Below are positions 1 to 19,688 of a stretch of DNA of 64,000 bases, in pieces; position 1 is the stretch's first letter; every line of letters starts with the position of its first letter. The notes beneath the pieces are model-generated. The model did not search any database, was not told where the DNA came from, and saw only the letters and a list, made by a program, of their open reading frames with translations. A program made the translations under genes and the position numbers. The DNA is taken from NCBI GenBank assembly GCA_019322435.1, contig JAHWIR010000008.1, positions 21,647 through 85,646 of the forward strand. The letters are read 5' to 3'. The stretch comes from Candidatus Woesearchaeota archaeon. GTDB taxonomy: Archaea > Nanobdellota > Nanobdellia > Woesearchaeales > WJKL01.

Positions 1-806
1 GGTTATTGAAAGATGAAGAGATAATGAAGGCTGTTTCTGAGGACAAGCAATATGATGATGTGCTTGTAAACCTGTTTGACTATACTGACATCAAATCTGA
101 AGAAGATGCAATGGACAGGATTGCTAAGAAGATAGGGATAACCCAGGCAAGGGAAATAAGACTGGAGAGGATGAATGAGATAGTTGACAAGTATCTGATG
201 CCTCATCTTGGAGTTGAAAAAGAAGACAGGCTGTTCAAAGCATATAACTTATGCAAGATGATAAAGAAGTTTGTTGATGTTTCTAACAGAGTATTGCCAA
301 CAGATGACAAAGACCATTATATGAACAAGAAATTGAAATTAAGCGGGGATCTGCTGTCTGATCTGGTAAGGATGAATCTTAAGGTGTTGATTGGGGACTT
401 GCTGTATAATTTCCAGAGGATTGTCAAGAGGGGGAAGTTCCCGTCAATCAAGGTTATTATAAGAGAGAAACTGCTTACTTCAAGGATCTACAGCGCAATG
501 GCAACAGGAAGCTGGGTTGGCGGCAGAAAGGGAATAAGCCAGAGAATCCAAAGACTGAATTTCCTGGATACAATGAGCCATCTGCAGAGAGTTGTAAGCC
601 CGCTGTCTGCTTCGCAGGAGAATTTTGAAGCCAGAGAACTGCATGCTACTCATCTTGGAAGATTATGCCCGATTGAAACGCCTGAAGGAACCAATATCGG
701 ACTGAGAAAGAATCTTGCATTGTTGTGCAAGACATCCCATGACTCTGATGAAGAGGAGTTATTGAAGCATATCAAGAATCTGGGAGCAAATCTTATCACA
801 AAATGA
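1..806 (+). CDS. rpoB2: DNA-directed RNA polymerase subunit B'' (N-terminal half of beta-like subunit), 3' part only; gene starts upstream of window
   Basis: The ORF is open to the window start, and its stop overlaps the start of the B' ORF (803), the arrangement typical of the archaeal split rpoB. The protein resembles RNAP subunit 2 fork/hybrid-binding regions. It sits directly upstream of rpoB'-rpoA'-rpoA''. Confidence 0.85.
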   Translation, partial: LLKDEEIMKAVSEDKQYDDVLVNLFDYTDIKSEEDAMDRIAKKIGITQAREIRLERMNEIVDKYLMPHLGVEKEDRLFKAYNLCKMIKKFVDVSNRVLPTDDKDHYMNKKLKLSGDLLSDLVRMNLKVLIGDLLYNFQRIVKRGKFPSIKVIIREKLLTSRIYSAMATGSWVGGRKGISQRIQRLNFLDTMSHLQRVVSPLSASQENFEARELHATHLGRLCPIETPEGTNIGLRKNLALLCKTSHDSDEEELLKHIKNLGANLITK

Positions 807-2611: not shown

Positions 2612-2658
2612 AACAATGTTGGGCAAAGCCCAACAAGGTTAAAAATAAATTTTTAACA

Positions 2659-5259: not shown

Positions 5260-5261
5260 AG

Positions 5262-6389
5262 ATGGCTAAAGAATATCAAAAATACAAAGGAAAGATTCCA
5301 GGAAATATATTAGAAGAGGTTAAAGAGATAACTAAAGGGATGGGAGAAGGAAGAGTCAATAGGGTATTAAAGGAAGTTTATAAGGAATACAAGAAAACAA
5401 AGGTTGAGCCAGGAGAAAGTGTAGGATTAGTCAGTGCTGAATCAATTGGAGAGCCGGGCACGCAGATGACATTGAACACATTCCACTTTGCTGGTGTTGC
5501 AGAGATGAATGTTACAGTGGGGCTGCCTAGGATAATTGAGATTTTGGATGGAAGGAAGAATATCAAGACCCCTATGATGGAGATATTTTTGAAGAAACCG
5601 TGGAGCACTGGAAAGAACATAAGGCAATTAGCGCTTTCTATCAAAGAGACAACAATAAAAGAGGTCCTGGTTGATATTTCTGTAAGTATTGTTGATTCTA
5701 AGATTGAATTAAAGTTAGATAATGAGAAGATGAAAGAGATTGGAATCACCCCTTCACAGATTACAGCTTCTTTAGGCAAGCAATTGAAAGGGATATCTGT
5801 AAAGAAAAAGGATGATATGATTATACTGAAACAAAAAGGAAAAGAAGTTGGTGTAGGAGACATCTACAAGATAAAGGAAAAGATAAAGGATATCTATGTC
5901 AAAGGTGTAAAAGGGATAAAGCAAGTATTGCCTGTTAAAAGAGATGATGAATTTATTATTATTACTGCTGGAAGCAATTTGAATGATATACTCCCATTGA
6001 AAGAAGTTGATGAGACAAGGACTGTGAGTAATGATGTGTTTGAAACAGCTGATATTTTGGGTGTTGAGGCTGCAAGACAGGTTGTCATGAATGAGGTCAA
6101 CAAGGTCATTGAAGCGCAGGGATTGAATGTTGATCTAAGGCATGTCATGCTTGTGGCTGATACAATGTGCTTTAATGGAGAGGTAAAAGGCATCACAAGA
6201 TATGGTATTGTAAGCAAGAAAGCCTCTGTCTTGGCAAGAGCTTCTTTTGAGACTCCAATAAGGCATATAATCAATGCTGCTCTTGTTGGAGAGGTTGATG
6301 AACTGAATTCTGTTGTTGAGAATGTTATGCTGAACCAGCCTGTTCCAGTCGGAACTGGACTTCCTGGATTGATCACAAAGGTGAAATAG
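5262..6389 (+). CDS. rpoA2: DNA-directed RNA polymerase subunit A''
   Basis: This 375-aa protein follows A' directly and shows trigger-loop/jaw region similarity. The split A'/A'' arrangement is archaeal-specific. Confidence 0.9.
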
Positions 6390-6390
6390 C

Positions 6391-6654
6391 ATGGGAGCAA
6401 TAGATGATATTAAAAAAGTTGTAAAAGAAGGAAAAATTGTTATTGGCACTAATAATGTTTTGAAGAATTTGAAATCAGGGAAGTTATCCAAAGTGTTTAT
6501 TACTTCTAATTGCCCTGCTGATGTTAAAGAGAGTGTAAATCATTATGCTGAGCTGGCTAAGGTAGATGTTGTCCAGCTGAAGCAGCCAAATAGTGAATTA
6601 GGAGTTGTCTGCAAAAAACCATTTTCTATTTCTTTGCTAGGAGTAAAGGTGTAA
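6391..6654 (+). CDS. rpl30e: 50S ribosomal protein L30e
   Basis: This 87-aa L7Ae/L30e-fold protein lies between rpoA'' and nusA, its conserved archaeal position. Confidence 0.8.
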   Translation: MGAIDDIKKVVKEGKIVIGTNNVLKNLKSGKLSKVFITSNCPADVKESVNHYAELAKVDVVQLKQPNSELGVVCKKPFSISLLGVKV

Positions 6655-6658
6655 TAAG

Positions 6659-7078
6659 TTGGGAATAAAGATAAAATTTGACATTGATCTGATGAAGTTT
6701 ATTTCTCTTTTTGAGAAAATCACTAAAGTTAATGCAAAGGACTGTTTTAAGCAGCATGAGAAGATTGTCTTTATTGTTCCTGAGGGTAAGGCTGGAATTG
6801 CTGTTGGCAAGAAAGGAATGAATATCAAGAAATTGGAAGGCATATTGAAGAAGAAAGTGAAGATTGTTGAGTACAGTGATGATTTGATTGAGTTTGTCAA
6901 GAATGTAATCCATCCTCTTGGTGCAAAAGAGATAACTGAAGATGATGGTATTGTTACAATAATTCCTCCTGATTCACAGACAAGAGGTTATTTGATTGGC
7001 AGAGAAGCTATTAATTTGCGGGGATTTGAAGATATAGTTAAAAGGTATTTTGATATCAAAGAGATAAAAGTTGTATAA
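6659..7078 (+). CDS. nusA: Transcription termination/antitermination factor NusA (archaeal KH-only form)
   Basis: The 139-aa protein has two KH-like segments with GxxG loops (GKAGIAVGKKGMNIKK). It sits between L30e and S12. Confidence 0.8.
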   Translation: MGIKIKFDIDLMKFISLFEKITKVNAKDCFKQHEKIVFIVPEGKAGIAVGKKGMNIKKLEGILKKKVKIVEYSDDLIEFVKNVIHPLGAKEITEDDGIVTIIPPDSQTRGYLIGREAINLRGFEDIVKRYFDIKEIKVV

Positions 7079-7124
7079 TAGTAAGGTTTTTAAATATATT
7101 ATAAATCAAGAATGATACTAAACA

Positions 7125-7562
7125 ATGGCAAATAAATCAAGAGGATTAGGGTCAGTAAGAAGATTGAAGAAAAGAAGCAGATCTAATAGATGGCATTCTA
7201 GTAAATATACAAAGAGGACGCTTGGGTTGAAGAAAAAGGCTGATCCATTGGAAGGAAGTTCTCAGGCAAAGGGCATTGTTCTTGAGAAGGTTCAATTGGA
7301 GGCAAAACAGCCAAACTCTGCTATGAGGAAGTGTGTCAGAGTGCAGCTTATCAAGAATGGAAAGCAAGTCACTGCTTTTGCTCCTGGTGACGGAGCTACT
7401 AAGCTGATTGATGAGCACGATGAGGTTGTTATTGAGTGTATTGGCGGGAAGATGGGCAGAGCAAAAGGAGATATTCCAGGAGTAAGATGGTGTGTCAAGA
7501 AAGTTAATGATCAAAGCTTGAATGCATTACTAAGGGGAAAGATAGAGAAGGCTAGAAAATGA
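7125..7562 (+). CDS. rps12: 30S ribosomal protein S12 (uS12)
   Basis: Conserved [13 protein letters not shown]...GDGA core. Confidence 0.92.
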
Positions 7563-7608
7563 AATTTTTAAATAAAAATTTCAGTGTTAAAATCGGAGAT
7601 TTGAACAA

Positions 7609-8202
7609 ATGATTAAAGCATTTGACAGATGGGATACAGGAGATATCAAGATTAAAGATAAGGGTTTAATAGAATATATTGTTGTTGAACCAAAGATTGT
7701 TCCTAGGACAGGAGCAAGATATGCTGGAGAAAGATTCCACAAATCCAAAGTTTTTATTATTGAGAGACTGATGAATAAAGTGATGGTTCCAGGGCATAAA
7801 AGCAAGAAACATTTCAGAAGTTCAGGACATATCACTGGAAAAGCTGGAAATGCATACAAGATTGTTGAAAAGGCTCTTTTAAAGATTGAAGCTTTGACAA
7901 AAGAGAATCCAATAAAAGTATTTGTCCAGGCTCTGGAGAATGCTGCTCCAAGAGAAGAGATAATCACAATCGAATACGGAGGAGCAAGGTATCCAAAAGC
8001 AGTTGAGTGCGCTCCACAGAGAAGGATAGATATTGCATTGAGATATTTCTGCCAAGGTGCTTATCAAAAATCTTTTAATTCTAAGAAAGCAATTGAAGAT
8101 GCTCTTGCTGATGAGATAATGAATGCTTACAAGTTAAGCAATAATTCTGCAGCTATTTCTAAAAAGCTTGAGTTAGAAAGACAGGCTGACGCTTCTCGTT
8201 AG
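7609..8202 (+). CDS. rps7: 30S ribosomal protein S7 (uS7)
   Basis: The 197-aa protein sits in the str-operon position after S12 and has a uS7-like sequence. Confidence 0.9.
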   Translation: MIKAFDRWDTGDIKIKDKGLIEYIVVEPKIVPRTGARYAGERFHKSKVFIIERLMNKVMVPGHKSKKHFRSSGHITGKAGNAYKIVEKALLKIEALTKENPIKVFVQALENAAPREEIITIEYGGARYPKAVECAPQRRIDIALRYFCQGAYQKSFNSKKAIEDALADEIMNAYKLSNNSAAISKKLELERQADASR

Positions 8203-8245: not shown

Positions 8246-8872
8246 TTATCCAATCACCACTATATGGTATGTTTTTATTTCTTTGTTGTCTTCATCAATT
8301 CCTGGATAATAAAACACTTCTTTGAACTTTTCAAATGAAATTTTGAGGTTTTCACCTAAATAAGAATCATTGCATATAAAATTAGATTCATCAAAACCTT
8401 TTATCAATATAAAATGTCCTTTGTATCCGCTTCCCCTAGTGAGTATGTTTCGATTAATAACTGCAATCACAAGCTTTTTTTGTTCAATCTGTGATTTGAT
8501 GAAATCAAGTGTTACTTCTCTTTTTTCAAATAGATTATTCTTCAAAACAAAATCAACGCTGGAGTCATAATGTTCTACGTCTACCTCTTCTCTAGGTCCT
8601 CCAACTTTTTTTAGTTCTTCTTCATCATTACCTATCTTCTTTAGGTCTTCGCTACTATGATATTTAGAGTTAATCCCAAATGAAGATAATAATTCAACAA
8701 TATACATCTCAAAGAACCACTTTCCTTTTTTGTATCTCATTCTCTTATAAAGCTCTGAAAAAGATACATCTATATCAAAGAACTTCAATATCATCATCAC
8801 AGTTGGTGGTCCTTGACATGAAGCGTATTCTTCTTTTTTGTCTCCTATAAAAGGAACATTTTTGATAATCAT
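8246..8872 (-). CDS. Papain-like cysteine peptidase, C39-like (Peptidase_C39_2/BtrH-like) domain protein
   Basis: A candidate nucleophile Cys sits in the ASCQGPPTVMMIL context and a candidate catalytic His downstream in GHFILIKGFDE. The gene is last in the minus-strand enzyme operon, separated from the preceding gene by a 95-bp gap. Confidence 0.45.
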   Translation of the reverse strand: MIIKNVPFIGDKKEEYASCQGPPTVMMILKFFDIDVSFSELYKRMRYKKGKWFFEMYIVELLSSFGINSKYHSSEDLKKIGNDEEELKKVGGPREEVDVEHYDSSVDFVLKNNLFEKREVTLDFIKSQIEQKKLVIAVINRNILTRGSGYKGHFILIKGFDESNFICNDSYLGENLKISFEKFKEVFYYPGIDEDNKEIKTYHIVVIG

Positions 8873-8967
8873 ATTAAGAATTATTTTTATTGAGTATATA
8901 AACCTATTTGTATTGTTAATTTTCTTCTATCCTTTTGAGAAAAAACTGAAGATTTATTTGCCATCTT

Positions 8968-10170
8968 TTACCTCAATAAATATTCTTTGGCTATTGGGTG
9001 GCTTAAGAAATTGTTTGCACCCATACTTGAACCATATGCTCCTGACTGATGTACTACAACCAAATCCCCAATATTAGCATTTTTAATCTGGATATCTTTA
9101 GCAAGAATATCTGCAGATAAACATAATGGTCCACCAATATCTATAATTTCGTTCCTTACGGAGGGTTGTCCAGGATGGAGTAATGGTTTTTTCATAGAAA
9201 TTATCTCTACTGGGTGGTTTGTTTCAGTTGCACATGGTCTTCTCTGATGATTGATTCCACCTGCTGTAATGATGTGCTTTTTGCCTTTAGACTCTTTTAT
9301 GTCTAATATTTCAGTAACATAATAACCAGATTCACCAACTATATATCTGCCTAATTCAAGAATTAATTCTTTGTTTTCATATCCTTGTTTTGATATTAGC
9401 TCAGACATGTTTTTTCCTAAAGATACTATATCCAAACTTCTTCCTTCGCCTTTATAATCTATTCCAAAACCACCACCAAGATCGATAATAGGTATGCCCT
9501 CTCCCTTATTTTCTAATCTATTAACCATCCCAAAAATATAATTAAAATAATCTAGAATGATTTCATGATCAAGCACCCCATTTCCAGCAAATACGTGTAT
9601 CCCTTGGAGGGAGATTCCTTCTAGATTAGATATTAATGCAGTTTGTTCTTCTATTCCCTTTTCATCTATTCCAAATTTAGAGGAAAAACCAGACATCAAA
9701 ATATGTGCTTTTTCTGGAGAATAATCAATATTAACTCTTACTAACACATCTACTGGGTGATTTGTAGTTTTTTTAACTATTTCTTTGATTCTTATTGCTT
9801 CAATATAAGACTCAACATTTATTTGTCTAATTCCCTCTTCAATATAGCGTTGAAGTTCATATCTATTCTTTCCAGGGCCTGTTGCAATTATTTCTTTAGG
9901 TTCAAAGAATTCTAAGGCTTTCTCCAGTTCTCCAGCAGAGGATACCTCAATACCATTAACTTTTTGAGATTTTTTCAGGTGGCACAATATTTCCTTATTA
10001 GGGTTAGCTTTCATGGCATAATACAAAGCAACATTTTCAGGAAGATTCTCCTTTAAACCAGAAAGTTGGGTATTGATTTTATCCATAGAATATAAATAAA
10101 AATAAGGCTCTCTATCAAAATCTGCGCTTCTTACAAGTTCTAATATCTTTCTCAATATATTGCTGTTCAT
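8968..10170 (-). CDS. PLP-dependent decarboxylase, Orn/DAP/Arg decarboxylase family (alanine-racemase-like fold III); LysA-like
   Basis: Motifs include YAMKANP with the PLP-binding Lys, a GGGFGIDY glycine-rich loop, an EPGR-like ELGRYIVGESG segment and a CLSAD segment. The 4-nt start overlaps the upstream gene. Confidence 0.8.
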   Translation of the reverse strand: MNSNILRKILELVRSADFDREPYFYLYSMDKINTQLSGLKENLPENVALYYAMKANPNKEILCHLKKSQKVNGIEVSSAGELEKALEFFEPKEIIATGPGKNRYELQRYIEEGIRQINVESYIEAIRIKEIVKKTTNHPVDVLVRVNIDYSPEKAHILMSGFSSKFGIDEKGIEEQTALISNLEGISLQGIHVFAGNGVLDHEIILDYFNYIFGMVNRLENKGEGIPIIDLGGGFGIDYKGEGRSLDIVSLGKNMSELISKQGYENKELILELGRYIVGESGYYVTEILDIKESKGKKHIITAGGINHQRRPCATETNHPVEIISMKKPLLHPGQPSVRNEIIDIGGPLCLSADILAKDIQIKNANIGDLVVVHQSGAYGSSMGANNFLSHPIAKEYLLR

Positions 10171-11387
10171 TTTAAGGAGTCTAAGACATTTCTAAGATTT
10201 AATGTAAATTTTGTAGGATCCATTGACATTGTAGTCCTAAACCAAAGCTCTTCTTCTTTTGTTTGAAATATGTGTCCTGGAGTAATACCTATATTTGTAG
10301 TTTCTAAAATATACTCAAACAATTCATGGGCATTCCCTATACCCTTTCTCCCTGCGTAATCTTTATTTATCTTTAAAAAGAATATATTGCCTGCTTCGGG
10401 TAGACATACTTTTTCAACAACTGGATGATTTTGACATAACTCCAGAGATGAGTTTACTCCTTGCTTAATTTTATTAAAAAAACTATCGAGTTCTTCAGAA
10501 TATTGTAAAGCTTCTGGAGATGTGGCTCCTACATCCATACTTGCTCTCAATCTCATCTCGGCTTTCATTATTTCATCTATTGTTTTTGAAACACAAAAAC
10601 CGGCGACCTCAGATGCTAAATTAAGGCTTTTTACAATGGAGGGGTCTCTAGAAATACTCCAGCCAATTCTAAAATCATTCATATGAGGTCGATCTTTACT
10701 TGGGCCTTTTATCTTTATCAATTTAGAGTAGTTTGATGTTGAAAAGAAATTGTGGCTTCTTGGATTTCTTGTTGCTTCTTCAAAGATAGCATCTAAAACA
10801 ACCACAATACCTGAGGATTCTGCTAAATTAATTACATCTTCCAATGTATTTTGATTAATATAGCTACAACATGGGTTTCCAGGAGATGTGAGAAATATAC
10901 ATGAGGTTTTCTCTGTTATGCAATTTTGAATATCTTTTACATTTGGTTGGAATCTGTTTTCAAAGTAAGTAGAGGTCAATACTGGCTTTAGACCATTATA
11001 AATTACTCCCCTTTCTATCTCTGGATATGCTGGTATTGGAATAATAATTTCATTTTTACCATTATTTTCAGATTCTTTCTTTAAATATCGGAAAATACTA
11101 TCAAAAGAACCAGTTACACCACCAGAATTTACAACTATATCTTCCTTAGAAAAGCCAGTTCCTTCATAATTAGATTCATGCAAGGCTACTAATTCTCTTA
11201 AAGAATAAGACCCTGCAGGATCATCATAACCTAACTCAACTTTGCCAGATTTTAATCTATCAAATGCGTCTTTTATGCAAGTCATAATAGGATATGATTC
11301 CATCCTAAAATTAGATGCATCTAATAGGACTGCTCCTTTTCTTTCTGCAATTTCAAAATAAGTTGACATGTCTGAAATTTTAATCAT
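10167..11387 (-). CDS. Class I/II (fold-type I) PLP aminotransferase; DapL/aspartate-aminotransferase-like
   Basis: LTSPGNPC and VVLDAIF motifs are present, together with SKDRPHMNDFRIGW, which carries the PLP-Lys followed by the conserved Arg-Gly. The protein is 406 aa. Confidence 0.75.
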   Translation of the reverse strand: MIKISDMSTYFEIAERKGAVLLDASNFRMESYPIMTCIKDAFDRLKSGKVELGYDDPAGSYSLRELVALHESNYEGTGFSKEDIVVNSGGVTGSFDSIFRYLKKESENNGKNEIIIPIPAYPEIERGVIYNGLKPVLTSTYFENRFQPNVKDIQNCITEKTSCIFLTSPGNPCCSYINQNTLEDVINLAESSGIVVVLDAIFEEATRNPRSHNFFSTSNYSKLIKIKGPSKDRPHMNDFRIGWSISRDPSIVKSLNLASEVAGFCVSKTIDEIMKAEMRLRASMDVGATSPEALQYSEELDSFFNKIKQGVNSSLELCQNHPVVEKVCLPEAGNIFFLKINKDYAGRKGIGNAHELFEYILETTNIGITPGHIFQTKEEELWFRTTMSMDPTKFTLNLRNVLDSLK

Positions 11388-12327
11388 CCTCCTTTGCTGG
11401 CTGTTTTTTATTTCTTGTAGCAGCTATTATAGGGATATTGCCTCCGCTATCTAATAAGTTTCTTTCATTTTTTCTAAATTTAGATGATAAAAATTCGAAA
11501 ATAAGATTGACTATATGGATACCAGTAACATTATTTGAATCAAATGAAGAGTTATACTCTACAAAATCTATGCCTTTTACATCTCCCTTCTTTCCTAGGT
11601 CGCAAATCAACCTTCTCGCAATACTATAATCAATGCCTGCTGGTTCTGGATAATTTGTCGCTGGTGCAATACTTGGATCTAAAACATCTATATCAAAAGA
11701 TAAATAAATTGGTTCATTTTCTTTAATCTTATCTAATAATGAAGCTGGACCTTTATCTTTCAGCTCAGTAGATGTTATCACTGTATTTTGATCTTTAATG
11801 GAATCTTCAATCCCTGGACCTGTATTGAGATTTCCACGCAGACCACAATGAATTACCTTTTGTACATTAGGTAATTTACTAACATACCTCATTACAGAGC
11901 CATTTGGAAAATTAGGTTCATTAAGATAATCACTATGGGCATCTAATTGAACTACAGTAATCTCGTTTTCATATGCAGACACTGCTGGAAAAGTTATATA
12001 ATGATCTCCTCCTAAAATAAGAGGAAAGCTATTTGAATCTAATATCTTTTTAATTTCCTTCTTTATTGTTTCTTCAATGGGTCTTGAACTAACATCTATA
12101 TTTCCAGTATCATTAAAAGTGATTCCATCTAAGATATATCCTCTTTCAGGATTATACATTTTTATAGGCTGTGCATTACCGTCTATATTAGAATATCTTT
12201 CACTAAGTTTTCTTAATGCGTCTGGACTTTTTTCTAAATTGGATCCTATCCCTACCACAGATACTATCTCACTGCATTTAGACCTATCTTTTAGATATGG
12301 CTGATTCAAGAAAGTTGGCTTAATCAT
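11380..12327 (-). CDS. Arginase/agmatinase/formiminoglutamase-family ureohydrolase
   Basis: The binuclear-Mn motifs GGDHYITFP, DAHSD and SFDIDVLDPS are present. The start is assigned to the internal ATG (MIKPTFL), which has a GAGGT Shine-Dalgarno sequence 7 nt upstream. The ORF track extends instead to an upstream GTG at 12351. Confidence 0.8.
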   Translation of the reverse strand: MIKPTFLNQPYLKDRSKCSEIVSVVGIGSNLEKSPDALRKLSERYSNIDGNAQPIKMYNPERGYILDGITFNDTGNIDVSSRPIEETIKKEIKKILDSNSFPLILGGDHYITFPAVSAYENEITVVQLDAHSDYLNEPNFPNGSVMRYVSKLPNVQKVIHCGLRGNLNTGPGIEDSIKDQNTVITSTELKDKGPASLLDKIKENEPIYLSFDIDVLDPSIAPATNYPEPAGIDYSIARRLICDLGKKGDVKGIDFVEYNSSFDSNNVTGIHIVNLIFEFLSSKFRKNERNLLDSGGNIPIIAATRNKKQPAKEDD

Positions 12328-12343
12328 TTTTACCTCTGAAATT

Positions 12344-13453
12344 TTAATCACCCTCCCCTATTGATTGATTTTTGTTATCCGCAGTAGCTATTAAAACAAT
12401 TATATCGTCCTCTTTTTTGATATTTCCTAATTCCTCTAAAGAAGCGTAAACCGATCTTGAAGAAAATTCTAAGTCAGGAAGTTCTTGTTCATGAGTTGCT
12501 TCTATTTGCTGATCTGTAACAGAAACCGCCACTCCTTTTGTTTTACTTAAAATATCCATTATTTTAAAGAAATTAAAGCAGGTATCTGATGCAATTGCTT
12601 CAGCTTTAGATTCTATTGGGTTCTCAATCACTACAATATCCATCCTATTTTCGATAGTATAGCCTTGTGTAATTGGGTCTGCTCCTTGTATTTGGACTGT
12701 CACAAATTTTGGCATTTTATCAGTCAGACCCATGTCTACCAAATCATTAAACCCATAATATTGAGCAACAATATTGCCACCACTACCTACAGGGATAACA
12801 ACCAAATCTGGAATATCCTGCATTTGAAGGAATATTTCATAAGCAATGGTCTTAAGTCCTTGTGAATAAGGAAGATTAGTAACAGGAAAACCATTATAGA
12901 CTGAATCATCAGATCCACAGAATTCGAAAAAATGTTCATAACTTCTAATTAAGTCTTGATCATATATTACTTCAGATTGTTTTTCTAATTTTTCTTTTTT
13001 TGGTGTGGGGGTGTCTTCAGGAACAAATACTATTGACTCTAATCCTGCTTTGCTTGCATAATATCCTAGAGATATTGCTGCGTTTCCTGTTGAAGGGATT
13101 GCTATTCTATTTTTTCCTGAGCTTAAAGCGTCAGAAACAAGCATAACCATTCCTCTATCTTTAAAACTTTGGGTTGGATTTTTCCCCTCATCTTTTAAGT
13201 AAATACCTTCCCGTAATTTCAATAAGGGCGTGCTTCCTTCTTCATCAGTAATTTTATCTACTATATCAAAAGGGATGCAATTCTTAAATCTCTTAATACC
13301 TTTTTCATCTGAGGTTAATGATTGTGGCAAAGTGTATGATGGAGTCCAAATATTCATTGGAACGCCACCAATAGACAATTCTGGATGCTTGTGTTCATTA
13401 GGATTGTTTGCCCTAAAGCTACAAACATCACAAGATAGATAATCTATTTTCAT
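12344..13453 (-). CDS. Threonine-synthase-like PLP enzyme (fold-type II, Trp-synthase-beta superfamily)
   Basis: The hallmark KDEGKNPTQSFKDRG PLP-lysine motif is present, and the 369-aa protein carries N-terminal CDVC cysteines. Confidence 0.8.
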   Translation of the reverse strand: MKIDYLSCDVCSFRANNPNEHKHPELSIGGVPMNIWTPSYTLPQSLTSDEKGIKRFKNCIPFDIVDKITDEEGSTPLLKLREGIYLKDEGKNPTQSFKDRGMVMLVSDALSSGKNRIAIPSTGNAAISLGYYASKAGLESIVFVPEDTPTPKKEKLEKQSEVIYDQDLIRSYEHFFEFCGSDDSVYNGFPVTNLPYSQGLKTIAYEIFLQMQDIPDLVVIPVGSGGNIVAQYYGFNDLVDMGLTDKMPKFVTVQIQGADPITQGYTIENRMDIVVIENPIESKAEAIASDTCFNFFKIMDILSKTKGVAVSVTDQQIEATHEQELPDLEFSSRSVYASLEELGNIKKEDDIIVLIATADNKNQSIGEGD

Positions 13454-13454
13454 T

Positions 13455-14630
13455 TTATTCTCTTATTAAATCCATTATTCTTTGAGATATTCTTCTTGAA
13501 TCTTTAATTGTAATTGCTGAATTCCAAATCGGTGAGCAATATTCACATTCTTGTTCATCATACAAAATATTGGCATTGTAAGTTTTATTGAATTCTTTTA
13601 TTGCATTGATTATTCTTTCATTGCAATTAGCACAGTTTCCTGAAGTTGTATGTGGGAATAATTCATTTCTTTCAATTCCTGGAGCAACTCCCTGGCTTCC
13701 GCTTAATATTTCTTCATCAAAATAACCACCAAGTCTTAAGTCTCTACCTGCTCCTAATTCCTTAGTTACTCCTCTAACAACTTCTATAACGCTCCACAAC
13801 CAAGGAACCCTATATGATCCTATTTGATATAGATAATCTGCGAGTGAATGTGCTTGTAAAGAAGTTGGCTCAATAGATACTGCATCAGAGCCATTATTGA
13901 AAGCGAATATTGAGGTTTCTACAGCATCATCTATTGCTTCTTTTTCAGTTAAAAAAGGCGGTTTTTGATTTACATAAGTTAAGGCCCTGAAATCATAGTC
14001 GTGCAGTGTTCTAATTGCTTCTAGATAAACATCTAAATTAGGCATATTTTTATGATGACATAGCTCTCTTATATCCGGGTTAGTAGATTCGAGTCCAATG
14101 CCTACTTCAATCAGACCTTTATTCACGCTTTTTATGTTCTCAATAACTTCTGGAGTTACATATTCTGCTCTAGATTCTATGATTGTTTTTTTAATTCCTA
14201 GCAAGGAGTCAATTGAAGAAAATATTTCTTTCATTGCTTCAATTGGAACCTCTTCTGGATTAAGAAAACTTCCCAGATTATATAAGCAAAGAACAGGATA
14301 ATCGTTAATGTCAAAATCAAGATTCCTTTCTATTGAGCTTCCATCAATTACGCTTTTCCATTGAGTAATATACTCTTCTGTAGTTACTGGGGTATCTGTT
14401 GTTCCTTCATAATGCCCGCATGTTGAGCAGCCTTGATTTAATCCATAATGACTGCATCCTGTGGATCTTAGAACAACCATAATCCTATCTATTGTTTTGT
14501 TCTCAAACCAAAATTTATTTATCTCAACTTCGGCAGGTTTGTTATGATCATATTTTCTAGGGGGTGATTGTTTTCTTAATTCTTTTAGCTTTTTTTCCAC
14601 AAGCTCCAAAGCTGTCTTGAATTCATCCAT
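13455..14630 (-). CDS. Fe-S / radical-SAM-like protein with atypical cysteine triad
   Basis: The protein has CSHYGLNQGCSTCGH (CX8CX2C, not the canonical CX3CX2C) near the N-terminus of a TIM-barrel-like region. It also has a C-terminal CANC...CEYC cluster. The assignment is tentative. Confidence 0.4.
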   Translation of the reverse strand: MDEFKTALELVEKKLKELRKQSPPRKYDHNKPAEVEINKFWFENKTIDRIMVVLRSTGCSHYGLNQGCSTCGHYEGTTDTPVTTEEYITQWKSVIDGSSIERNLDFDINDYPVLCLYNLGSFLNPEEVPIEAMKEIFSSIDSLLGIKKTIIESRAEYVTPEVIENIKSVNKGLIEVGIGLESTNPDIRELCHHKNMPNLDVYLEAIRTLHDYDFRALTYVNQKPPFLTEKEAIDDAVETSIFAFNNGSDAVSIEPTSLQAHSLADYLYQIGSYRVPWLWSVIEVVRGVTKELGAGRDLRLGGYFDEEILSGSQGVAPGIERNELFPHTTSGNCANCNERIINAIKEFNKTYNANILYDEQECEYCSPIWNSAITIKDSRRISQRIMDLIRE

Positions 14631-16008
14631 CCTGATCTCCTTGTATTCTGTTTAATAGAGAGATTATGGGCCTATATTTGTCTCCTGTATCTATTGGTGT
14701 TTCTTTAACCAAATGAACATTGACTTCCATATCTCTTGGGATTAATTGATATAGGCTTTCTTTTATTCTCCCTTTTTGAGCAGGACTTAGACCAAATCTA
14801 CCTTTAACTATAAATAAATCTAAGTCTCCTTTTGTATTTTGAACAAGCTGGTATTTCAACCCATGAATAGGAACATCTAATTCCAAATACCAATTATAAG
14901 CCACATCCATAAAACTGCCCGCAGGTATTATTTCTTTATCATTTACAACAATGGAATCCATATATCTCCCTTGAGGAGAATCTATAACCCTAAAATTACT
15001 TCCACAATCGCAGTTATTTGTTCTTTGTATAGATCCAATGTCTCCTTGTGAATAACGTATAATTGGCGTGGCTTCGTTTAGCAAATTTGTACCTATAACA
15101 AGGCCTCTTTTTCCATTTTCTACTACATTTGTTGTTTCTGGATCAACAACTTCAACATAACAAGCGTCTTCTTCCAAGTGATACTTTCTACTTGTACATT
15201 CAAGAGCGATTCTTGTGAGCTCTTCACTACTGAACTCATCCAGTACATTAACCTTAAAGAAATCAGAAAGTTCTTTTCTTTCAGCTTCTGTTGACTGTTC
15301 TGAATGTATAACAATCAGTTCAACCCCTGAATTTTCAAGATTACATCTTCTTCCCATGATTCTTTTCAAATAAGTGGGATAAGTGGATAGCACCTTGGGT
15401 CTTAATTTTTCTATTGTCTTAACAGCTTCCTCGACAGGGATAGTGGTGGGGGAAAATTCTGTAGGATATTCCCCATCAATTGAAGATACCCACCAAGGAC
15501 TTGTATAGATAAACAGAGCTAAATCTGTTGGATTATAATTGCCACCACTTTGAAAATAGAATTGCCTTGCTCCTTGAAGTGTGTCCATGTAAATAGCCTC
15601 AGAAGATACAGCAATAGTAACAAATTTTCCGGTTGATCCTGAACTTCTTGTAGTAAATTCTGTGCTGTGTTTTTTACTGATTGTTTTTTCAGGGAACCCG
15701 CTTATCAGTTCCTCCTTGGTCAATATAGGCAGTTTTTGAAAATCTTTCCATGTCTTAATGTCTTCTGGTTCAAAACCAACAGAAGAATATTTTTCTTTGT
15801 AAAGATCAACTGTCTCAAAAGCATGTTTAACTAATTCCTGGATTCTTTTAAATTGGAGATCTTTAATTTTCTCTAATGGTTGCTTATAGAAATCTCTTAT
15901 TTTTTCCCATCTAAGATTCATTATTCTTCGAAGTTGGGCATGGTCTCTTTCAGTTTCTTTTCTCTTATTGCTTGTTCCTAAATTTAAGTAGATTGATTCA
16001 CTAGTCAT
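14623..16008 (-). CDS. Adenylate-forming enzyme, phenylacetate-CoA ligase (PaaK)/coenzyme F390 synthetase/CapK family
   Basis: The P-loop-like SSGSTGKFVTIA matches the TSGSTGKP AMP-binding motif. The 461-aa length and overall pattern fit the family. Confidence 0.75.
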   Translation of the reverse strand: MTSESIYLNLGTSNKRKETERDHAQLRRIMNLRWEKIRDFYKQPLEKIKDLQFKRIQELVKHAFETVDLYKEKYSSVGFEPEDIKTWKDFQKLPILTKEELISGFPEKTISKKHSTEFTTRSSGSTGKFVTIAVSSEAIYMDTLQGARQFYFQSGGNYNPTDLALFIYTSPWWVSSIDGEYPTEFSPTTIPVEEAVKTIEKLRPKVLSTYPTYLKRIMGRRCNLENSGVELIVIHSEQSTEAERKELSDFFKVNVLDEFSSEELTRIALECTSRKYHLEEDACYVEVVDPETTNVVENGKRGLVIGTNLLNEATPIIRYSQGDIGSIQRTNNCDCGSNFRVIDSPQGRYMDSIVVNDKEIIPAGSFMDVAYNWYLELDVPIHGLKYQLVQNTKGDLDLFIVKGRFGLSPAQKGRIKESLYQLIPRDMEVNVHLVKETPIDTGDKYRPIISLLNRIQGDQDG

Positions 16009-16925
16009 TTTAGATTCACTTTATCTCCATCATTAAGCACATAATCCCTCCCAACCATTTCTCCGTCATGGGTTGTTGAACTTCCAAAGATTTTAGCACC
16101 TTTAATTTTGTCTTTACCTAGACCTATTTTTTTTGCAAAATCTCCTACTGTTACTTCTTGGTTTCTGGGAAATATTAAAGGATCGCCATCTACCTGGCCA
16201 TTTTTGAAACAGTATACCCTCCTGATATTTAGTAATCTATATATTTCATCTCCGATGTCAGTAGGAGAAGATATGTCCACTACATTATATTCTTCATAAT
16301 CAAATTTAGACCATGCAGCCACAAAAGAGGGTTTTTCTATGATATCCTCTTTTGATCTGTATTTATGCTTCTTAGACTCAGAAACATTTCCGGAGATTAT
16401 TATAAGATAATCTTCAAGAGTAGAGATAACAGAACTCAGCTCTTTTTTATCTCTTACAGCAACACAAATAACATCGGAATTTCTTATGAACTGAATTTTA
16501 TTTTTATCATTATCTCCCCCATATAAAGAAGGCACTTCTGCTATTTGTATAGGAACGTCGTTGTATACAAAAATGCCTGCTTCTGGTTTGTATGTAGTAA
16601 AAGGTGCATCAGATATCTTTGGATTTGAATTTGTCAGCATTTGCATTAAGGTACTTTTACCAGAATTTGCTTCACCTACAATTGCAACTTGCCTGTTATA
16701 TTTTATTGAACTGTAAATATTTTGGGGTGGTTGTTTTTTCTTAGAAGATGTTTTCTTTTTTAAGACATCTAATTCTTTTTTGAATTTTGTTCTCAATTCT
16801 AAGTCTCTGGAATCTTTTGGGTTAAGTACGACTAATTCTTCTAATAATCTTATTCTTTCTTGTTCTGTGCTTACATGATTGAGTTTTTGTTTTTTTAGTC
16901 TAAATGCTATATTCTGGTTTTTCAT
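16005..16925 (-). CDS. Divergent Obg/DRG-family GTPase with C-terminal TGS domain
   Basis: G1 is IVGEANSGKSTL and G2 is DAPFTT. The G3 position reads IAEVPSL, a degenerate form of DxxG. The C-terminus (TVGDFAKKIGLG...DGDKVNL) resembles a TGS domain. Confidence 0.65.
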   Translation of the reverse strand: MKNQNIAFRLKKQKLNHVSTEQERIRLLEELVVLNPKDSRDLELRTKFKKELDVLKKKTSSKKKQPPQNIYSSIKYNRQVAIVGEANSGKSTLMQMLTNSNPKISDAPFTTYKPEAGIFVYNDVPIQIAEVPSLYGGDNDKNKIQFIRNSDVICVAVRDKKELSSVISTLEDYLIIISGNVSESKKHKYRSKEDIIEKPSFVAAWSKFDYEEYNVVDISSPTDIGDEIYRLLNIRRVYCFKNGQVDGDPLIFPRNQEVTVGDFAKKIGLGKDKIKGAKIFGSSTTHDGEMVGRDYVLNDGDKVNLK

Positions 16926-16961
16926 ATTAATGCACCATGTTACCCCCGAGAATAATAAGAT

Positions 16962-16982
16962 AATGTACTTTAAAAACCTTCG
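16962..16982 (-). promoter_or_regulatory. Candidate archaeal TATA/BRE promoter element for the minus-strand enzyme operon
   Basis: The minus strand reads AAGGTTTTTAAAGTACATTA about 45 nt upstream of the GTPase ATG. Its T/A-rich box fits the TTTAWA consensus. Confidence 0.3.
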
Positions 16983-16987
16983 TCAAA

Positions 16988-17719
16988 TTACTCAGCCATC
17001 TTCCACAGCATCTCGAAAAAAGCTCTGTAACTATCTGCTACTTCTTTTGATGTTATCAAGAAGACTATTGGGAGTTTTTTAAGGACTAGGATTCCAACGT
17101 GATTTGCATAGATGTCGACTGCTGCTGGTGTTTTCATGTTTTTTGGCATGTATTTTACTTTTGTTAATGGCAAGCTGGAATAGAATTTTCCTGTGGTTTT
17201 TGCATCTGCATTGAAGATCATTCTCATTTTTATGCCTTTTTTGATTCTTCTTCTTGTGTATTGCTTGAAATAAGTCTTTGCCATGAAGGATTCATCCTGG
17301 CCTCTGGCTCCAAACACCAAAATTTCATCTCCTTTTTTTAGTGTTGCAACAATATTATCATAAACATTCCTTACTCCTTTGTAGCCTTCGTAGGTTGTTG
17401 CTTTTTCTTCTGGAAGATGCTCTTTTTCAATTGCTTTTAATCTTGGGATTATTTCCTGGATCTCTCTTTTTTCTTGTTCTAAGAGATTTAAAAGAGTATT
17501 TGGGTCTGCTGCTGAGAAATGTTTTCTGTTTGCTTTTAGATGGAAACTTACCAGTCCTTTTTCTATCAGTTTGTTCAAGGATTCGTATACTCTTGATGTA
17601 TGCAAGCCAGATTTGTGAGTTAGGGGGCCTGTTGTTGTGGTGCCTAATTCTAGCAAAGAAAGATAAATTATTATCTCATTCTTTGTAAGGCCTAGTTTTT
17701 CAAGTATTGGCTGCTCCAT
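16988..17719 (-). CDS. TrmB-family transcriptional regulator (wHTH + C-terminal effector domain)
   Basis: The N-terminal LTKNEIIIYLSLLELGTTTTGPLTHKSGLHTSRVYESLNKLIEKGLV segment is a TrmB-type HTH. The 243-aa length matches the family. Confidence 0.75.
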   Translation of the reverse strand: MEQPILEKLGLTKNEIIIYLSLLELGTTTTGPLTHKSGLHTSRVYESLNKLIEKGLVSFHLKANRKHFSAADPNTLLNLLEQEKREIQEIIPRLKAIEKEHLPEEKATTYEGYKGVRNVYDNIVATLKKGDEILVFGARGQDESFMAKTYFKQYTRRRIKKGIKMRMIFNADAKTTGKFYSSLPLTKVKYMPKNMKTPAAVDIYANHVGILVLKKLPIVFLITSKEVADSYRAFFEMLWKMAE

Positions 17720-17805
17720 AGCAAATATTAATGTTTGTAACTATATAAACTTTCTCCTTTTTAGGAGGAATATTATTTAAGCTAAACACTTCCCATCTAT
17801 ACTGT

Positions 17806-18036: not shown

Positions 18037-19002
18037 ATGGTTAAAAAGATTTTTTTTAAAGACCCTATCAGAGGGAATCAAGTTGTAAGCGGAAAGCGAT
18101 TGATTTCTGCTAGTAGAAATCTAGTAGACAGAATTTTAGATCTTGAATCTGATGAAGCATTAGTTATTCAAAGAGACAGAGATATTATTCCAGGTGAGTA
18201 TTCTGACTCAAAGAAGTTTATGAAACACGGCAAAGAAGTCAAGCCGAAGAGAACATATACTTTAAGAGAGATGGTAAAGCAGAGAAAGATTCCTGTTAAA
18301 ATAAGGGAAGAGGCATTTGAAACTATTAAAAATCCATATTTCTGCGGATATTCTTTTGTTCCAGCAGGAAGAGACAAAGTAAAGAGAAAAGTAAGCCTTG
18401 TTGCTTGTTTAGAAGGAAACAGGATATACTGCTATGCGCACCAGGTTAGATTCACTGGGATTGACGTAGGACAATATGATGATGCAAGAAGAGTAGAGAT
18501 AGAAGGGGCTACTGTTCCTGTAAGGGTTCCTTCAAGAACAAAAGGCCAGAGAAAACATGAATTTAATTTAAATTCTGTTGCAATAGAGGATACTCCAGAC
18601 AAGTATTCTATTGCTTATGAAATTGAATCTGAAGGGCATCTTTGCAAGCATAAGCAATACATGTTCAGGTATAGGCCAAAGAGGGGCCATGAAAAATCTA
18701 AGATTATAAATATATGCCCTCATGAGATTGCAGCTTATATGGAAGCTGTTGACATGTACTGGAATGAAGACAAGAATATTATTCCTCTGCAGATGTCCCA
18801 GTTTGTTGTTCCGACACAATTCTTTGTTGACCAGTATAAGAAGATCTGCAGGCAGATTGCGTTTGAGAAAGACGGCAATTTAAAGGTTCCAAACTTTGCT
18901 CAAAAGGAGATTTTGCTGTGGGCAATTGTTCAAAGAGAAGGACATGATAAAACCTGCTTTGCTTCAGAAGGAACAAAAGTTAGAAGATATAATTGGTCTT
19001 AA
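18037..19002 (+). CDS. Hypothetical protein (321 aa), no recognisable family
   Basis: It is a long ORF with coding-like composition and a T-rich tract downstream. Confidence 0.5.
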   Translation: MVKKIFFKDPIRGNQVVSGKRLISASRNLVDRILDLESDEALVIQRDRDIIPGEYSDSKKFMKHGKEVKPKRTYTLREMVKQRKIPVKIREEAFETIKNPYFCGYSFVPAGRDKVKRKVSLVACLEGNRIYCYAHQVRFTGIDVGQYDDARRVEIEGATVPVRVPSRTKGQRKHEFNLNSVAIEDTPDKYSIAYEIESEGHLCKHKQYMFRYRPKRGHEKSKIINICPHEIAAYMEAVDMYWNEDKNIIPLQMSQFVVPTQFFVDQYKKICRQIAFEKDGNLKVPNFAQKEILLWAIVQREGHDKTCFASEGTKVRRYNWS

Positions 19003-19043
19003 TTACGAAGCTTTTTTAAACCGCTTTTTCTTTCTTTTTTCTT

Positions 19044-19688
19044 ATGGAGATGCTGTTTATTGAAGCCAAGAGCAAAGCTGATGTTAAGAAAGCTGTAGAG
19101 AAAGCTATGAAGTACTTACCCAAGAAAGTTGGAATAGTGACAACTGCTCAGCACAAGCATAAATTAAAAGAAGTTAAGAAGATATTAGAGGAAAAAGGAA
19201 TCAAAGCTGAGATTGGTGGACAAGTGTTGGGCTGCGATGCTTCTGCTGCTAAAAAGATAAAAGCAGATGTTATTTTATATGTTGGATCAGGAAGATTCCA
19301 TCCAATTGAAGTGCAGTTAGAGACAGGGAAAAAGGTTGTTATGGCAAATCCTTTGACAAATGAAGCAAAAGTGCTGGAGAAAGAGGAAGTTGAGAAATTA
19401 AAAAAACAGCAAAAAGGTGCTTTGATGAAGTTTTTGTCTTCTGATAATATAGGGATAATAGTCAGTACAAAGCCTGGGCAGGAAAAATTGAAAAAAGCAA
19501 TGGAATTAAAGAAAAGATTAAAAGATAAGAACTGCTATATATTCTTGGCTGACACTATAAACCCTGCTGAGTTTGAGAATTTTCCTTTTATCGAGTGCTG
19601 GGTCAATACTGCATGTCCGAGATTTGCAGATGGTAAAAAAGGTGTTGTGAATTATGGGATTGTGGAAAAAACTGTCAAAAAAGGCTAA
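19044..19688 (+). CDS. Dph2-like protein (2-(3-amino-3-carboxypropyl)histidine synthase family), unusually short
   Basis: VGSGRFHPIE resembles the GDGRFH motif of Dph1/Dph2. Several conserved Cys are present (GCDASAA, CWVNTACPR). The protein is only 214 aa, against about 330 aa for typical archaeal Dph2. Confidence 0.45.
   Translation: MEMLFIEAKSKADVKKAVEKAMKYLPKKVGIVTTAQHKHKLKEVKKILEEKGIKAEIGGQVLGCDASAAKKIKADVILYVGSGRFHPIEVQLETGKKVVMANPLTNEAKVLEKEEVEKLKKQQKGALMKFLSSDNIGIIVSTKPGQEKLKKAMELKKRLKDKNCYIFLADTINPAEFENFPFIECWVNTACPRFADGKKGVVNYGIVEKTVKKG

Follow-up and report, generated by a model that had tools for sequence, protein, structure and literature searches.

We analysed a 64,000-nt stretch of DNA from a Candidatus Woesearchaeota metagenome-assembled genome (MAG; contig JAHWIR010000008.1), referred to here as the window, and found that nine minus-strand open reading frames (ORFs) fill its positions 8246-17719. 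In the direction of transcription they encode a TrmB-like protein, a P-loop nucleoside triphosphatase (NTPase) derived from the DRG family, a PaaK-like ligase, a radical SAM enzyme related to the archaeosine enzyme RaSEA, a ThrC-like enzyme, an arginase-family ureohydrolase, an aminotransferase-like enzyme, a decarboxylase and a C39-like papain-fold enzyme. We are highly confident that the genes form one functional cluster of a biosynthetic type. The evidence is about evenly balanced on the further reading that this is a horizontally spread cluster whose product is a basic, amino-acid-derived inhibitor of translation, of the arginine or lysine type, with self-protection by an ABC-F protein in bacteria or by the DRG-like NTPase in archaea. 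More tentatively, the cluster may represent a new family of translation-targeting natural products that has moved among DPANN archaea, bacteria of the candidate phyla radiation (CPR) and gut Firmicutes, and in which the archaeal producer is protected by a DRG-derived NTPase without the NKxD motif, as a counterpart of the antibiotic-resistance (ARE) ABC-F proteins. The ORFs and family assignments had been proposed by an earlier model reading of the letters alone (the sequence-only reading), and profile searches (Pfam, NCBIfam, PDB) confirmed them.

We scanned one genome per species (185,579 species genomes) and mapped the neighbouring genes by tblastn and ORF clustering. The scan returned 41 loci with the radical SAM enzyme, namely 38 in the 49-76% identity range and three RaSEA-type outliers at 29-34%; the window locus is designated W and the compared loci carry L-numbers. 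The hosts of the 38 loci were Woesearchaeota, Aenigmatarchaeota and other archaeal MAGs, CPR bacteria (Shapirobacteria, Microgenomates) and many MAGs of gut Clostridia and Bacilli. The results showed that the collinear order ligase, radical SAM enzyme, ThrC-like enzyme, aminotransferase-like enzyme (ureohydrolase/decarboxylase) was kept across domains at 32-74% identity. Recurrence of this gene set in dozens of unrelated genomes puts the arrangement far outside what chance would give. The sequence-only reading had staked its proposal of a pathway on such co-conservation, and the neighbourhood comparison found it in both domains.

Around this order the accessory genes varied. The aminotransferase-like, decarboxylase and ureohydrolase genes occurred together in Clostridia, Bacilli and L009, the first two of them in L011, the ureohydrolase and aminotransferase-like genes in L050, and the ureohydrolase gene alone in L008. 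A Ddl-like ATP-grasp gene, with or without the ureohydrolase gene, was present in CPR and L007, and a B12-radical SAM gene in L004 and L056, while L048, L053 and L061 had a minimal version consisting of NTPase, ligase, radical SAM, ThrC-like and C39-like genes. In a second architecture, the set of pyridoxal phosphate (PLP) enzymes was replaced by a further radical SAM enzyme with ATP-grasp, GNAT and M20 proteins; some of these loci also carried a HAD-family hydrolase and an arginine-deiminase-family enzyme, the latter indicating that guanidino chemistry recurs in both types. Modular accessory genes around a fixed core characterise a family of biosynthetic gene clusters.

Genes of a protection type nearly always accompanied this core. 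An ABC-F gene was found within 9 kb in 30 of the 33 bacterial loci, often between biosynthetic genes, that is, inside the biosynthetic cluster in the bacterial versions; a rough estimate based on a few ABC-F genes per genome and an 18-kb span puts chance linkage at about 3%. Six of the seven tested ABC-F proteins passed the NCBIfam model "ribosomal protection-like ABC-F" (437-475 bits against a cut-off of 380), and the CPR protein scored 309.5 bits. All seven failed the EttA and Uup cut-offs, and none reached the cut-off of a named resistance subfamily. Passing the protection-like model and being embedded among biosynthetic genes, they resemble the ARE ABC-F proteins of the TlrC/CarA/OleB/SrmB type, although the chemistry of the present cluster differs from that of the macrolide and lincosamide clusters. 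Bleomycin-resistance (Ble)-like proteins of the glyoxalase fold occurred in 16 loci at varied positions, including those of an archaeon (L008), a Shapirobacterium (L010) and Woesearchaeota and other archaea (L050, L011). EamA, MATE and ABC exporters and an APH-like kinase were also among the loci, and GNAT and M20 genes were frequent. Archaeal loci usually carried the DRG-derived NTPase instead of an ABC-F gene; in the window no ABC-F gene was found, and its cluster has the NTPase in that role of companion. An Aenigmatarchaeota-type locus on a 740-kb contig (L004:5612-7216) carried an ABC-F gene inside the cluster, beside C39-like and B12-radical SAM genes, whose product scored 436 bits (cut-off 380). 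A bacterial-style, ribosomal-protection-like ABC-F protein is unusual in archaea, yet it is present in L004.

The NTPase (16005-16925, minus strand; 306 aa, MMR_HSR1 and TGS domains) is encoded by the first gene of the operon. It has the DRG/Rbg1 architecture of an N-terminal helical region, a G domain and a C-terminal TGS domain, and its AlphaFold2 (AF2) model (pLDDT 85.9) best matched Rbg1 in the PDB (4a9a and ribosome-bound 7rr5; E 2e-13 to 5e-12), followed by HflX/HflXr. In this likeness to ribosome-binding Rbg1 and, next, to HflX/HflXr, the archaeal NTPase recalls the GTPase type of ribosome protection or rescue (HflXr, Tet(M)). Compared with canonical archaeal homologues, the G1 and G2 motifs were kept, the Asp of G3 was changed to Glu and the NKxD segment was deleted; the S5D2L-type insertion PF16897 was not detected, and the complete G motifs of a DRG protein were not present. 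About 22 close relatives of about 304 aa were found at 40-72% identity, followed by a gap to canonical archaeal DRG-like proteins at 29%, and an exhaustive HMMER scan of 1.84 billion proteins gave 11 representatives of the subfamily at E<=1e-30.

Every NTPase copy with enough flanking DNA adjoined cluster genes or a cluster remnant. In the window, L048 and L050 the gene came first and shared 4 nt with the ligase gene that follows; it stood directly 5' of the ligase gene in L053, L056, L059 and L061, and 3' of the ureohydrolase gene in L008. TTTATA(A/T)A boxes preceded it by 37-60 nt in L048, L049, L050, L056, L059 and L061. In L049 (7814-9462), from a related Woesearchaeote, only the NTPase gene and the first 207 ligase codons (70% identical) were kept, as a decayed cluster. 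These observations do not fit the view of the NTPase as a housekeeping DRG bystander; it forms a cluster-specific subfamily that stands in place of the bacterial ABC-F genes. The gene had also been called divergent, which is right for its sequence only, as it is co-directional with the rest. We know of no DRG-derived protein that acts as a resistance factor. The ABC-F proteins and the NTPase may fill the same role on the host's own ribosome, for which self-protection would be the most economical reading; a swap by domain is expected if the factor has to match the ribosome of its own host.

The first core enzyme is a PaaK/F390-synthetase-like adenylate-forming ligase (14623-16008, minus strand; 461 aa). 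It had no Pfam match, and the NCBIfam PaaK models scored far below their cut-offs (TIGR02155, 121.6 bits against 646; NF041878, 126.1 against 700), so it is not a PaaK equivalog; the PDB match to PaaK (E 8e-22) is a likeness to the fold class only. In a Pfam-type profile search, no TGT, PUA or other RNA-binding domain was found. The ligase gene lay directly 5' of the radical SAM gene in 36 of the 38 species-level loci, and most of the intervening distances ranged from -20 to +17 nt. In the remaining two, its slot was taken by a protein resembling the C-terminal domain of phosphatidylglycerol lysyltransferase, which has an aminoacyl-tRNA-transferase fold, and this stand-in hints that the ligase may aminoacylate some acceptor.

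The second core enzyme (13455-14630, minus strand; 391 aa) belongs to the radical SAM superfamily (PF04055, 29.6 bits against a cut-off of 29.5). Its score with the RaSEA model TIGR01210 was 194.6 bits, below the curated cut-off of 212.15; five other family members scored 186-199 bits, and a genuine Thermoplasmata RaSEA 353 bits. The motif C59-X8-C68-X2-C71 was invariant in 14 homologues, and a CxxC...CxxC pattern is present at the C terminus. Over 500 proteins make up the family; in archaea, CPR and Firmicutes they share 49-76% identity with the protein of the window. The PDB held a single sequence relative, queuine lyase (6p78), which is likewise a radical SAM enzyme. Because the TIGR01210 score lies below the cut-off, the motif is CX8CX2C rather than the CX7CX2C of RaSEA, and the C-terminal Cys pairs are shared, the enzyme is assigned on sequence to a sister family of RaSEA and not to RaSEA itself. 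The description as an atypical Fe-S (CX8CX2C) protein was thus correct for the motif and had missed the identity.

RaSEA turns preQ0-Lys in tRNA into archaeosine, in complex with ArcS (PMC11298593). The cluster enzyme is about 29-34% identical to RaSEA, shares with it the unusual CX7-8CX2C motif, a YRVPWLWS block and the C-terminal Cys pairs, and is likewise paired with an enzyme encoded next to it. It differs in having CX8 rather than CX7, in an insertion (GGYFDEEVLSGSQG...), in a partner that is an ATP-dependent PaaK-like ligase instead of ArcS, and in its occurrence in bacteria. To our knowledge, bacteria do not make archaeosine. No ArcS, TGT/ArcTGT or preQ0 genes were seen near the radical SAM gene in window-type loci, and the partners of RaSEA are therefore missing from its surroundings. 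More distant RaSEA-like radical SAM proteins, 26-33% identical, were found in cultured Firmicutes, on a Bacillus thuringiensis plasmid (L052, NZ_CP009349.1) and on pSOL1 of Clostridium acetobutylicum (L051). One of the two lies in a cluster resembling those of polyketide and fatty acid synthases (carrier proteins, AsnB, phosphopantetheinyl transferase, ABC exporters), and the other beside DUF1659/DUF2922 gene pairs. Judging from these sequences, RaSEA-type enzymes seem to be used more widely beyond archaeosine synthesis.

The ThrC-like enzyme (12344-13453, minus strand; 369 aa) is a fold-type II PLP enzyme (PALP; PF00291, 141 bits) with the PLP-lysine motif SFKDRG and a PDB match to ThrC (E 2e-31). 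Its scores with TIGR00260 (94.4 bits against 167) and PRK05638 (159.6 against 421) do not make it a ThrC equivalog, and its gene lay 3' of the radical SAM gene in all window-type loci. The ureohydrolase (11380-12351, minus strand; 323 aa) is a member of the PF00491 superfamily (166 bits) that reached neither the agmatinase model TIGR01230 (108.1 bits against 174.3) nor the arginase model (82.8 against 227.6); its nearest PDB entries were agmatinase 1wog, guanidinobutyrase 3nio and proclavaminate amidinohydrolase (PAH) 1gq6. The motifs GGDH, DAHSD and SFDIDVLDP, which hold the Mn ligands, are intact. On the L049 contig, the related Woesearchaeote has a separate canonical operon for a pyruvoyl-type arginine decarboxylase (PvlArgDC), agmatinase and deoxyhypusine synthase (DHS), and that agmatinase is 29% identical to the cluster ureohydrolase.

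The aminotransferase-like enzyme (10167-11387, minus strand; 406 aa) is a fold-type I PLP enzyme (PF00155, Aminotran_1_2, 106 bits). Its best NCBIfam match was the cyclodehydratase GntC (108 bits, cut-off 415), only generic aminotransferases were matched in the PDB (<=61 bits), and the LL-diaminopimelate (DAP) aminotransferase model TIGR03540 scored 58.3 bits against 593, so that it is not DapL. Its gene occurred together with that of the decarboxylase in 19 of the 38 loci. The latter protein (8968-10170, minus strand; 400 aa) belongs to the Orn/DAP/Arg decarboxylase family, scored 237.3 bits with the lysA model TIGR01048 (cut-off 297.9), and is not LysA by that measure. Among PDB structures it was closest to 6knh (196 bits) and BtrK (179 bits), and true DAP decarboxylases reached at most 136 bits. 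The structure 6knh is that of SbnH (PMC7139808). The active-site loop of the cluster decarboxylase reads GPLCLSAD (CLSAD), compared with CTPKD in SbnH and CTPED in BtrK. In DAP decarboxylases the corresponding loop is CESGD. Both SbnH and BtrK act on an amino acid after its conjugation, which in the case of SbnH is to a citryl group. The DapL/LysA pair and the decarboxylase-plus-agmatinase pair of the sequence-only reading are accordingly reduced to analogies, the decarboxylase being nearest SbnH and BtrK rather than LysA. All cluster enzymes scored below the curated cut-offs of their housekeeping namesakes (LysA, ThrC, SpeB, DapL, PaaK and RaSEA).

The C39-like protein (8246-8872, minus strand; 208 aa) matched PF13529 (Peptidase_C39_2, 36 bits) and Guanylate_cyc_2, with PF03412 at 19 bits below its cut-off of 22; no BtrH-family Pfam model was among its matches at E<=0.01. 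Cys19, His153 and Asp169, the catalytic residues of a papain fold, were invariant in 15 homologues. The AF2 model (pLDDT 92.4) had PDB fold neighbours at TM 0.37-0.54, including pseudomurein isopeptidase PeiR, C39-like 3erv, a primitive phytochelatin synthase, double-glycine leader peptidases and the transacylase CtaG; the fold search gave TM values of about 0.5 alike for isopeptidases, gamma-Glu-Cys transpeptidase, leader peptidases and the CtaG transacylase. On this model the protein is most simply described as a predicted papain-fold hydrolase or transacylase. The family is small (30 proteins). It was linked to the cluster in W, L004, L007, L009, L011, L048, L053-L056, L058, L059 and L061, all archaeal, and was absent from all bacterial versions. 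Orphan genes surrounded by housekeeping genes were found at L062:10001-10654 and L057:3865-4491, with NrdD as neighbour on a 431-kb contig in one case and TatD and Dus on either side in the other, and a short contig (L066:358-1572) carried an NTPase gene followed directly by a C39-like gene and nothing else. The orphan copies may be immunity genes, and occurrence both linked and alone is the pattern expected of an immunity or maturation gene. There was no conserved small ORF that could be a double-glycine precursor, and the window's cluster had no ABC exporter or carrier protein, and hence neither a C39 leader-peptidase nor a BtrH context.

Several known pathways offer partial parallels. The butirosin module BtrJ/BtrK/BtrH/BtrG decarboxylates an amino acid while it is conjugated, adding a protecting group that is later removed. 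The cluster decarboxylase is close to BtrK, and several cluster loci pair an ATP-grasp ligase with a papain-fold Cys-His enzyme; however, no carrier protein or aminoglycoside genes were seen, and the core of the cluster is a ligase with a radical SAM enzyme. With the SbnA/SbnH pair of staphyloferrin B, the cluster shares a decarboxylase whose best solved relative is SbnH and a fold-type II PLP enzyme, the counterpart of SbnA. Unlike that pathway, it showed no NRPS-independent siderophore (NIS) synthetases or SbnB, its PALP enzyme is ThrC-like and not CysK/SbnA-like, and linkage to ABC-F and NTPase genes is no siderophore trait. Dapdiamide synthesis (PaaK-like ligase DdaG, ATP-grasp DdaF and PALP-dependent Dap supply) also combines an amide-forming PaaK-like ligase with ATP-grasp and PALP enzymes, and in the clavulanate pathway an arginase-family enzyme, PAH, unmasks an amine during secondary metabolism. 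The similarity to these two is weak (DdaG, E 6e-4; PAH, 70 bits), and both pathways are without a radical SAM partner.

From these likenesses a tentative sequence of steps can be drawn. The ligase would activate a carboxylate, probably that of an amino acid, and join it to an amine or hydroxyl, and the radical SAM enzyme, by analogy with RaSEA and queuine lyase, would carry out radical chemistry on an N-linked Lys- or Arg-type side chain. Beta- or gamma-replacement by the ThrC-like enzyme could supply or extend an amino-acid unit. The aminotransferase-like enzyme and the decarboxylase might leave a primary amine where the conjugate ended in a keto or amino acid, SbnH and BtrK also being decarboxylases of conjugated amino acids. 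The ureohydrolase might free an amine from a guanidino group, which is the kind of step that proclavaminate amidinohydrolase performs. The C39-like enzyme could remove or transfer an acyl or aminoacyl group, in pro-drug maturation or immunity. The product would act on the ribosome, and the ABC-F protein in bacteria or the operon-first NTPase in archaea would protect the producer.

Several points weigh against a self-protected translation inhibitor. Every locus was recovered from a MAG or a metagenome, none from a cultured producer. Neither an exporter nor a Ble-like gene is part of the window's cluster, and in L007/L054/L055, L009 and L011, all archaeal, both possible protection genes (NTPase and ABC-F) are missing within reach. 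ABC-F and DRG proteins are also housekeeping translation factors, and the linkage could mean a partner rather than protection; with Glu in G3 and no NKxD, the NTPase may depart from conventional GTPases. Among characterised enzymes, the one nearest to the radical SAM enzyme acts on tRNA and not on a free metabolite, and the substrate assignments for the ligase, the ThrC-like enzyme and the aminotransferase-like enzyme are analogies. Three ideas about the product were considered as candidates: a link to 7-deazaguanines, for which no preQ0 genes were present in the clusters; a route like that of D-cycloserine (arginase, PALP and ATP-grasp); and installation of an aminopropyl group, as by Mur24/Mur23. 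The searchable literature gave no description of the cluster, its coverage being incomplete and this being absence of evidence only. A gene cluster with embedded resistance is of a known kind; what appears to be new is the enzyme core, its occurrence across DPANN, CPR and Firmicutes, and a candidate protection factor derived from DRG.

The same translation link can be read as a pathway that modifies the translation machinery. The ligase and RaSEA-like enzyme would install or remodel a group of amino-acid or polyamine type on a tRNA, an rRNA or a translation factor, in the manner of ArcS-RaSEA, TiaS or EpmA/EpmB, with the PLP enzymes, decarboxylase and ureohydrolase making the donor and the ABC-F protein or NTPase as ribosome partner instead of resistance factor. 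Work by RaSEA with ArcS on preQ0-Lys in tRNA would suit this reading, as would queuine lyase being the only PDB relative, the ordinary role of ABC-F and DRG proteins as translation factors, the position of the window and L048 clusters beside ribosomal-protein and EF-2 genes, and the lack of an exporter in the window's cluster. We nevertheless consider it unlikely, given the sporadic distribution (41 loci in 185,579 species genomes) with decayed remnants, the highly variable tailoring sets, the recurrence of Ble-like, GNAT, M20, exporter and APH-like genes, the fit of the ABC-F proteins to a resistance-type model and not to EttA or Uup, and a ligase in which no TGT, PUA or other RNA-binding domain was detected. 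We also know of no modification that needs its own six-enzyme donor pathway. A product without toxicity (for instance a polyamine of unusual kind, a chelator resembling opines or siderophores, or a compatible solute), in which the neighbouring ABC-F, NTPase and Ble-like genes would play a regulatory part or none, is in our judgement slightly more doubtful still. The ABC-F linkage in 30 of 33 bacterial loci against about 3% by the rough chance estimate, the frequent embedding of that gene between biosynthetic genes and the 4-nt overlap of NTPase and ligase genes in several archaea all speak against it, and no NIS synthetase or receptor genes were seen; SbnH as nearest relative of the decarboxylase, a ureohydrolase and decarboxylase that recall polyamine synthesis, and the ordinary enzymes within the glyoxalase/VOC fold are what it can draw on.

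C39 peptidases and radical SAM enzymes are typical genes for ribosomally synthesized and post-translationally modified peptides (RiPPs), and double-glycine leader peptidases are among the structures that the C39-like model resembles. In a RiPP- or pearlin-type pathway, the radical SAM enzyme and ligase would act on a small peptide, serving as precursor or scaffold, which the C39-like leader peptidase would then release. However, no ORF of 20-69 aa was conserved between unrelated loci, the C39-like gene is missing from every bacterial version and has no fused ABC transporter, and its weak fold matches (TM about 0.5) fit isopeptidases and transacylases just as well; we regard such a pathway as very improbable. 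The remaining alternative, that ordinary lysA, dapL, thrC, speB, paaK and DRG genes stand side by side by chance in a compact genome, has in its favour that the domain families are those of housekeeping enzymes. It was rejected on the sub-threshold scores and the co-conservation, and we give it almost no credence: every score fell below the equivalog cut-off, the same set is collinear and co-conserved in distant phyla and both domains, and the NTPase belongs to a rare subfamily distinct from canonical DRG. On these grounds, the proposal of the sequence-only reading that the genes make up a dedicated, uncharacterised small-molecule pathway and not scattered lysA/dapL/thrC/speB genes was upheld. 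The self-protected translation inhibitor remains the reading we favour.

We next describe the transcription of the window's cluster, for which unit, TATA and terminator calls are consensus matches read from the DNA. The TrmB-like helix-turn-helix (HTH) protein (16988-17719, minus strand; 243 aa, PF01978, 53 bits) scored 36-43 bits with TrmB/TrmBL1 equivalog models whose cut-offs are 600-650; only its HTH domain was recognised, and no C-terminal sensor or sugar-binding domain was detected in a profile search. A TATA-like box (GTTTATATAG, 17741-17750, minus strand) lies about 21 nt 5' of its ATG, a second (GGTTTTTAAAGT, 16967-16978, minus strand), the probable operon promoter, about 45 nt 5' of the NTPase ATG, and a third (GGTTTATATAC, 8893-8903, minus strand) about 20 nt 5' of the C39-like ATG. 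A T6 run (8940-8945, minus strand), 22 nt past the decarboxylase stop codon, may be an archaeal terminator. The likely transcription units are TrmB, NTPase to decarboxylase (seven genes) and C39-like, because TATA-like boxes precede TrmB, NTPase and C39-like genes, T6 follows the decarboxylase gene, and TrmB was not found with the cluster elsewhere. Control by TrmB, as first suggested, was rejected: no TrmB-like gene stood beside the cluster in any other locus, no sensor domain was recognised, and the NTPase gene has its own TATA-like box. The C39/BtrH-like gene had been taken as the end of the operon; it is indeed co-conserved, but is probably a separate transcript, and its likeness to BtrH holds at the level of the papain fold only.

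Overlaps of 4-8 nt, which had been stated for all consecutive genes, were present at five of the eight junctions. They measured 4 nt for NTPase/ligase, 8 nt for ligase/radical SAM, 8 nt for ThrC-like/ureohydrolase if a GTG start is used, 8 nt for ureohydrolase/aminotransferase-like and 4 nt for aminotransferase-like/decarboxylase. A GGAGG box speaks for the GTG start, as does the near-identical ureohydrolase/aminotransferase-like junction. A 1-nt spacer separates the radical SAM and ThrC-like genes, and gaps of 62 nt and 95 nt lie between the TrmB and NTPase genes and between the decarboxylase and C39-like genes. On the minus strand, positions 12300-12380 (ThrC-like/ureohydrolase) and 11336-11416 (ureohydrolase/aminotransferase-like) share a near-identical GGAGG(G/A)TGATTAAAATTTCAGA with similar upstream bases, so that the ureohydrolase and aminotransferase-like proteins both begin MIKIS. 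The ureohydrolase gene lies between the ThrC-like and aminotransferase-like genes in the window and L050 and is placed elsewhere in other loci. From its sequence, the shared stretch looks like the footprint of a cassette insertion or a shared signal for translational coupling.

The GC content of the cluster was 32-34.5%, compared with 36-42% in the flanks, and its proteins were 50-60% identical to their bacterial counterparts. It lies directly after, and convergent with, an RNA polymerase A'/A''-L30e-NusA-S12-S7 string (window 1-8202, plus strand), and the L048 cluster adjoins EF-2, NDK, L24e, S28e and L7Ae, so that both insertions are beside translation genes. The GC contrast, the position, the decayed remnant in L049 and the orphan C39-like and NTPase genes are signs that the cluster was horizontally acquired. 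No cluster relatives were found in IMG/VR viral contigs. Carriage by phages or plasmids was considered and set aside: phage records held only distant PaaK-like matches to the ligase, and plasmids only radical SAM homologues of <=33% identity in other contexts. On the far side of the cluster (window 18037-19688, plus strand), a 321-aa ORF without a Pfam match is followed by a 214-aa Dph2-like diphthamide-synthesis protein, which covers positions 64-270 of the 302-position profile only and is perhaps truncated or split.

The Clostridia versions showed a further conserved arrangement: a Ble-like gene ending in a terminator hairpin, then a TTGACT-17-TATAAT promoter and, ahead of the ligase gene, a conserved leader of some 125 nt. 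The leader is at L022:8464-8596, with equivalents in L020, L024, L025, L027, L028, L033, L036, L037 and L042. RNAalifold predicted an outer stem and two hairpins with 19 pairs, of which six had compensatory changes and 95.8% of cells were paired, and the covariation exceeded that of all 500 shuffles and of slid controls. Seven bacterial loci were searched for a riboswitch that might point to the ligand, but no Rfam family reached its gathering score, and the leader had no Rfam match. It is a candidate for a new cis-regulatory RNA; alternatively, it may be a protein operator, given the palindrome TGTAATTACA in the second hairpin.

If the favoured reading is true, ultra-small uncultured archaea and CPR bacteria, which are usually regarded as metabolically minimal, would carry genes for a bioactive compound that targets the cell's most conserved machine, and would exchange them with gut Firmicutes. 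The product would be a new antibiotic scaffold made by unusual enzymology, with a RaSEA-type radical SAM enzyme outside tRNA modification, and the NTPase would be the first candidate for factor-mediated ribosome protection in archaea. The pair of ligase and radical SAM enzyme would also provide a handle for mining hundreds of related clusters. Even without an antibiotic product, the tight tie of this chemistry to ribosome-binding NTPases in both domains calls for an explanation.

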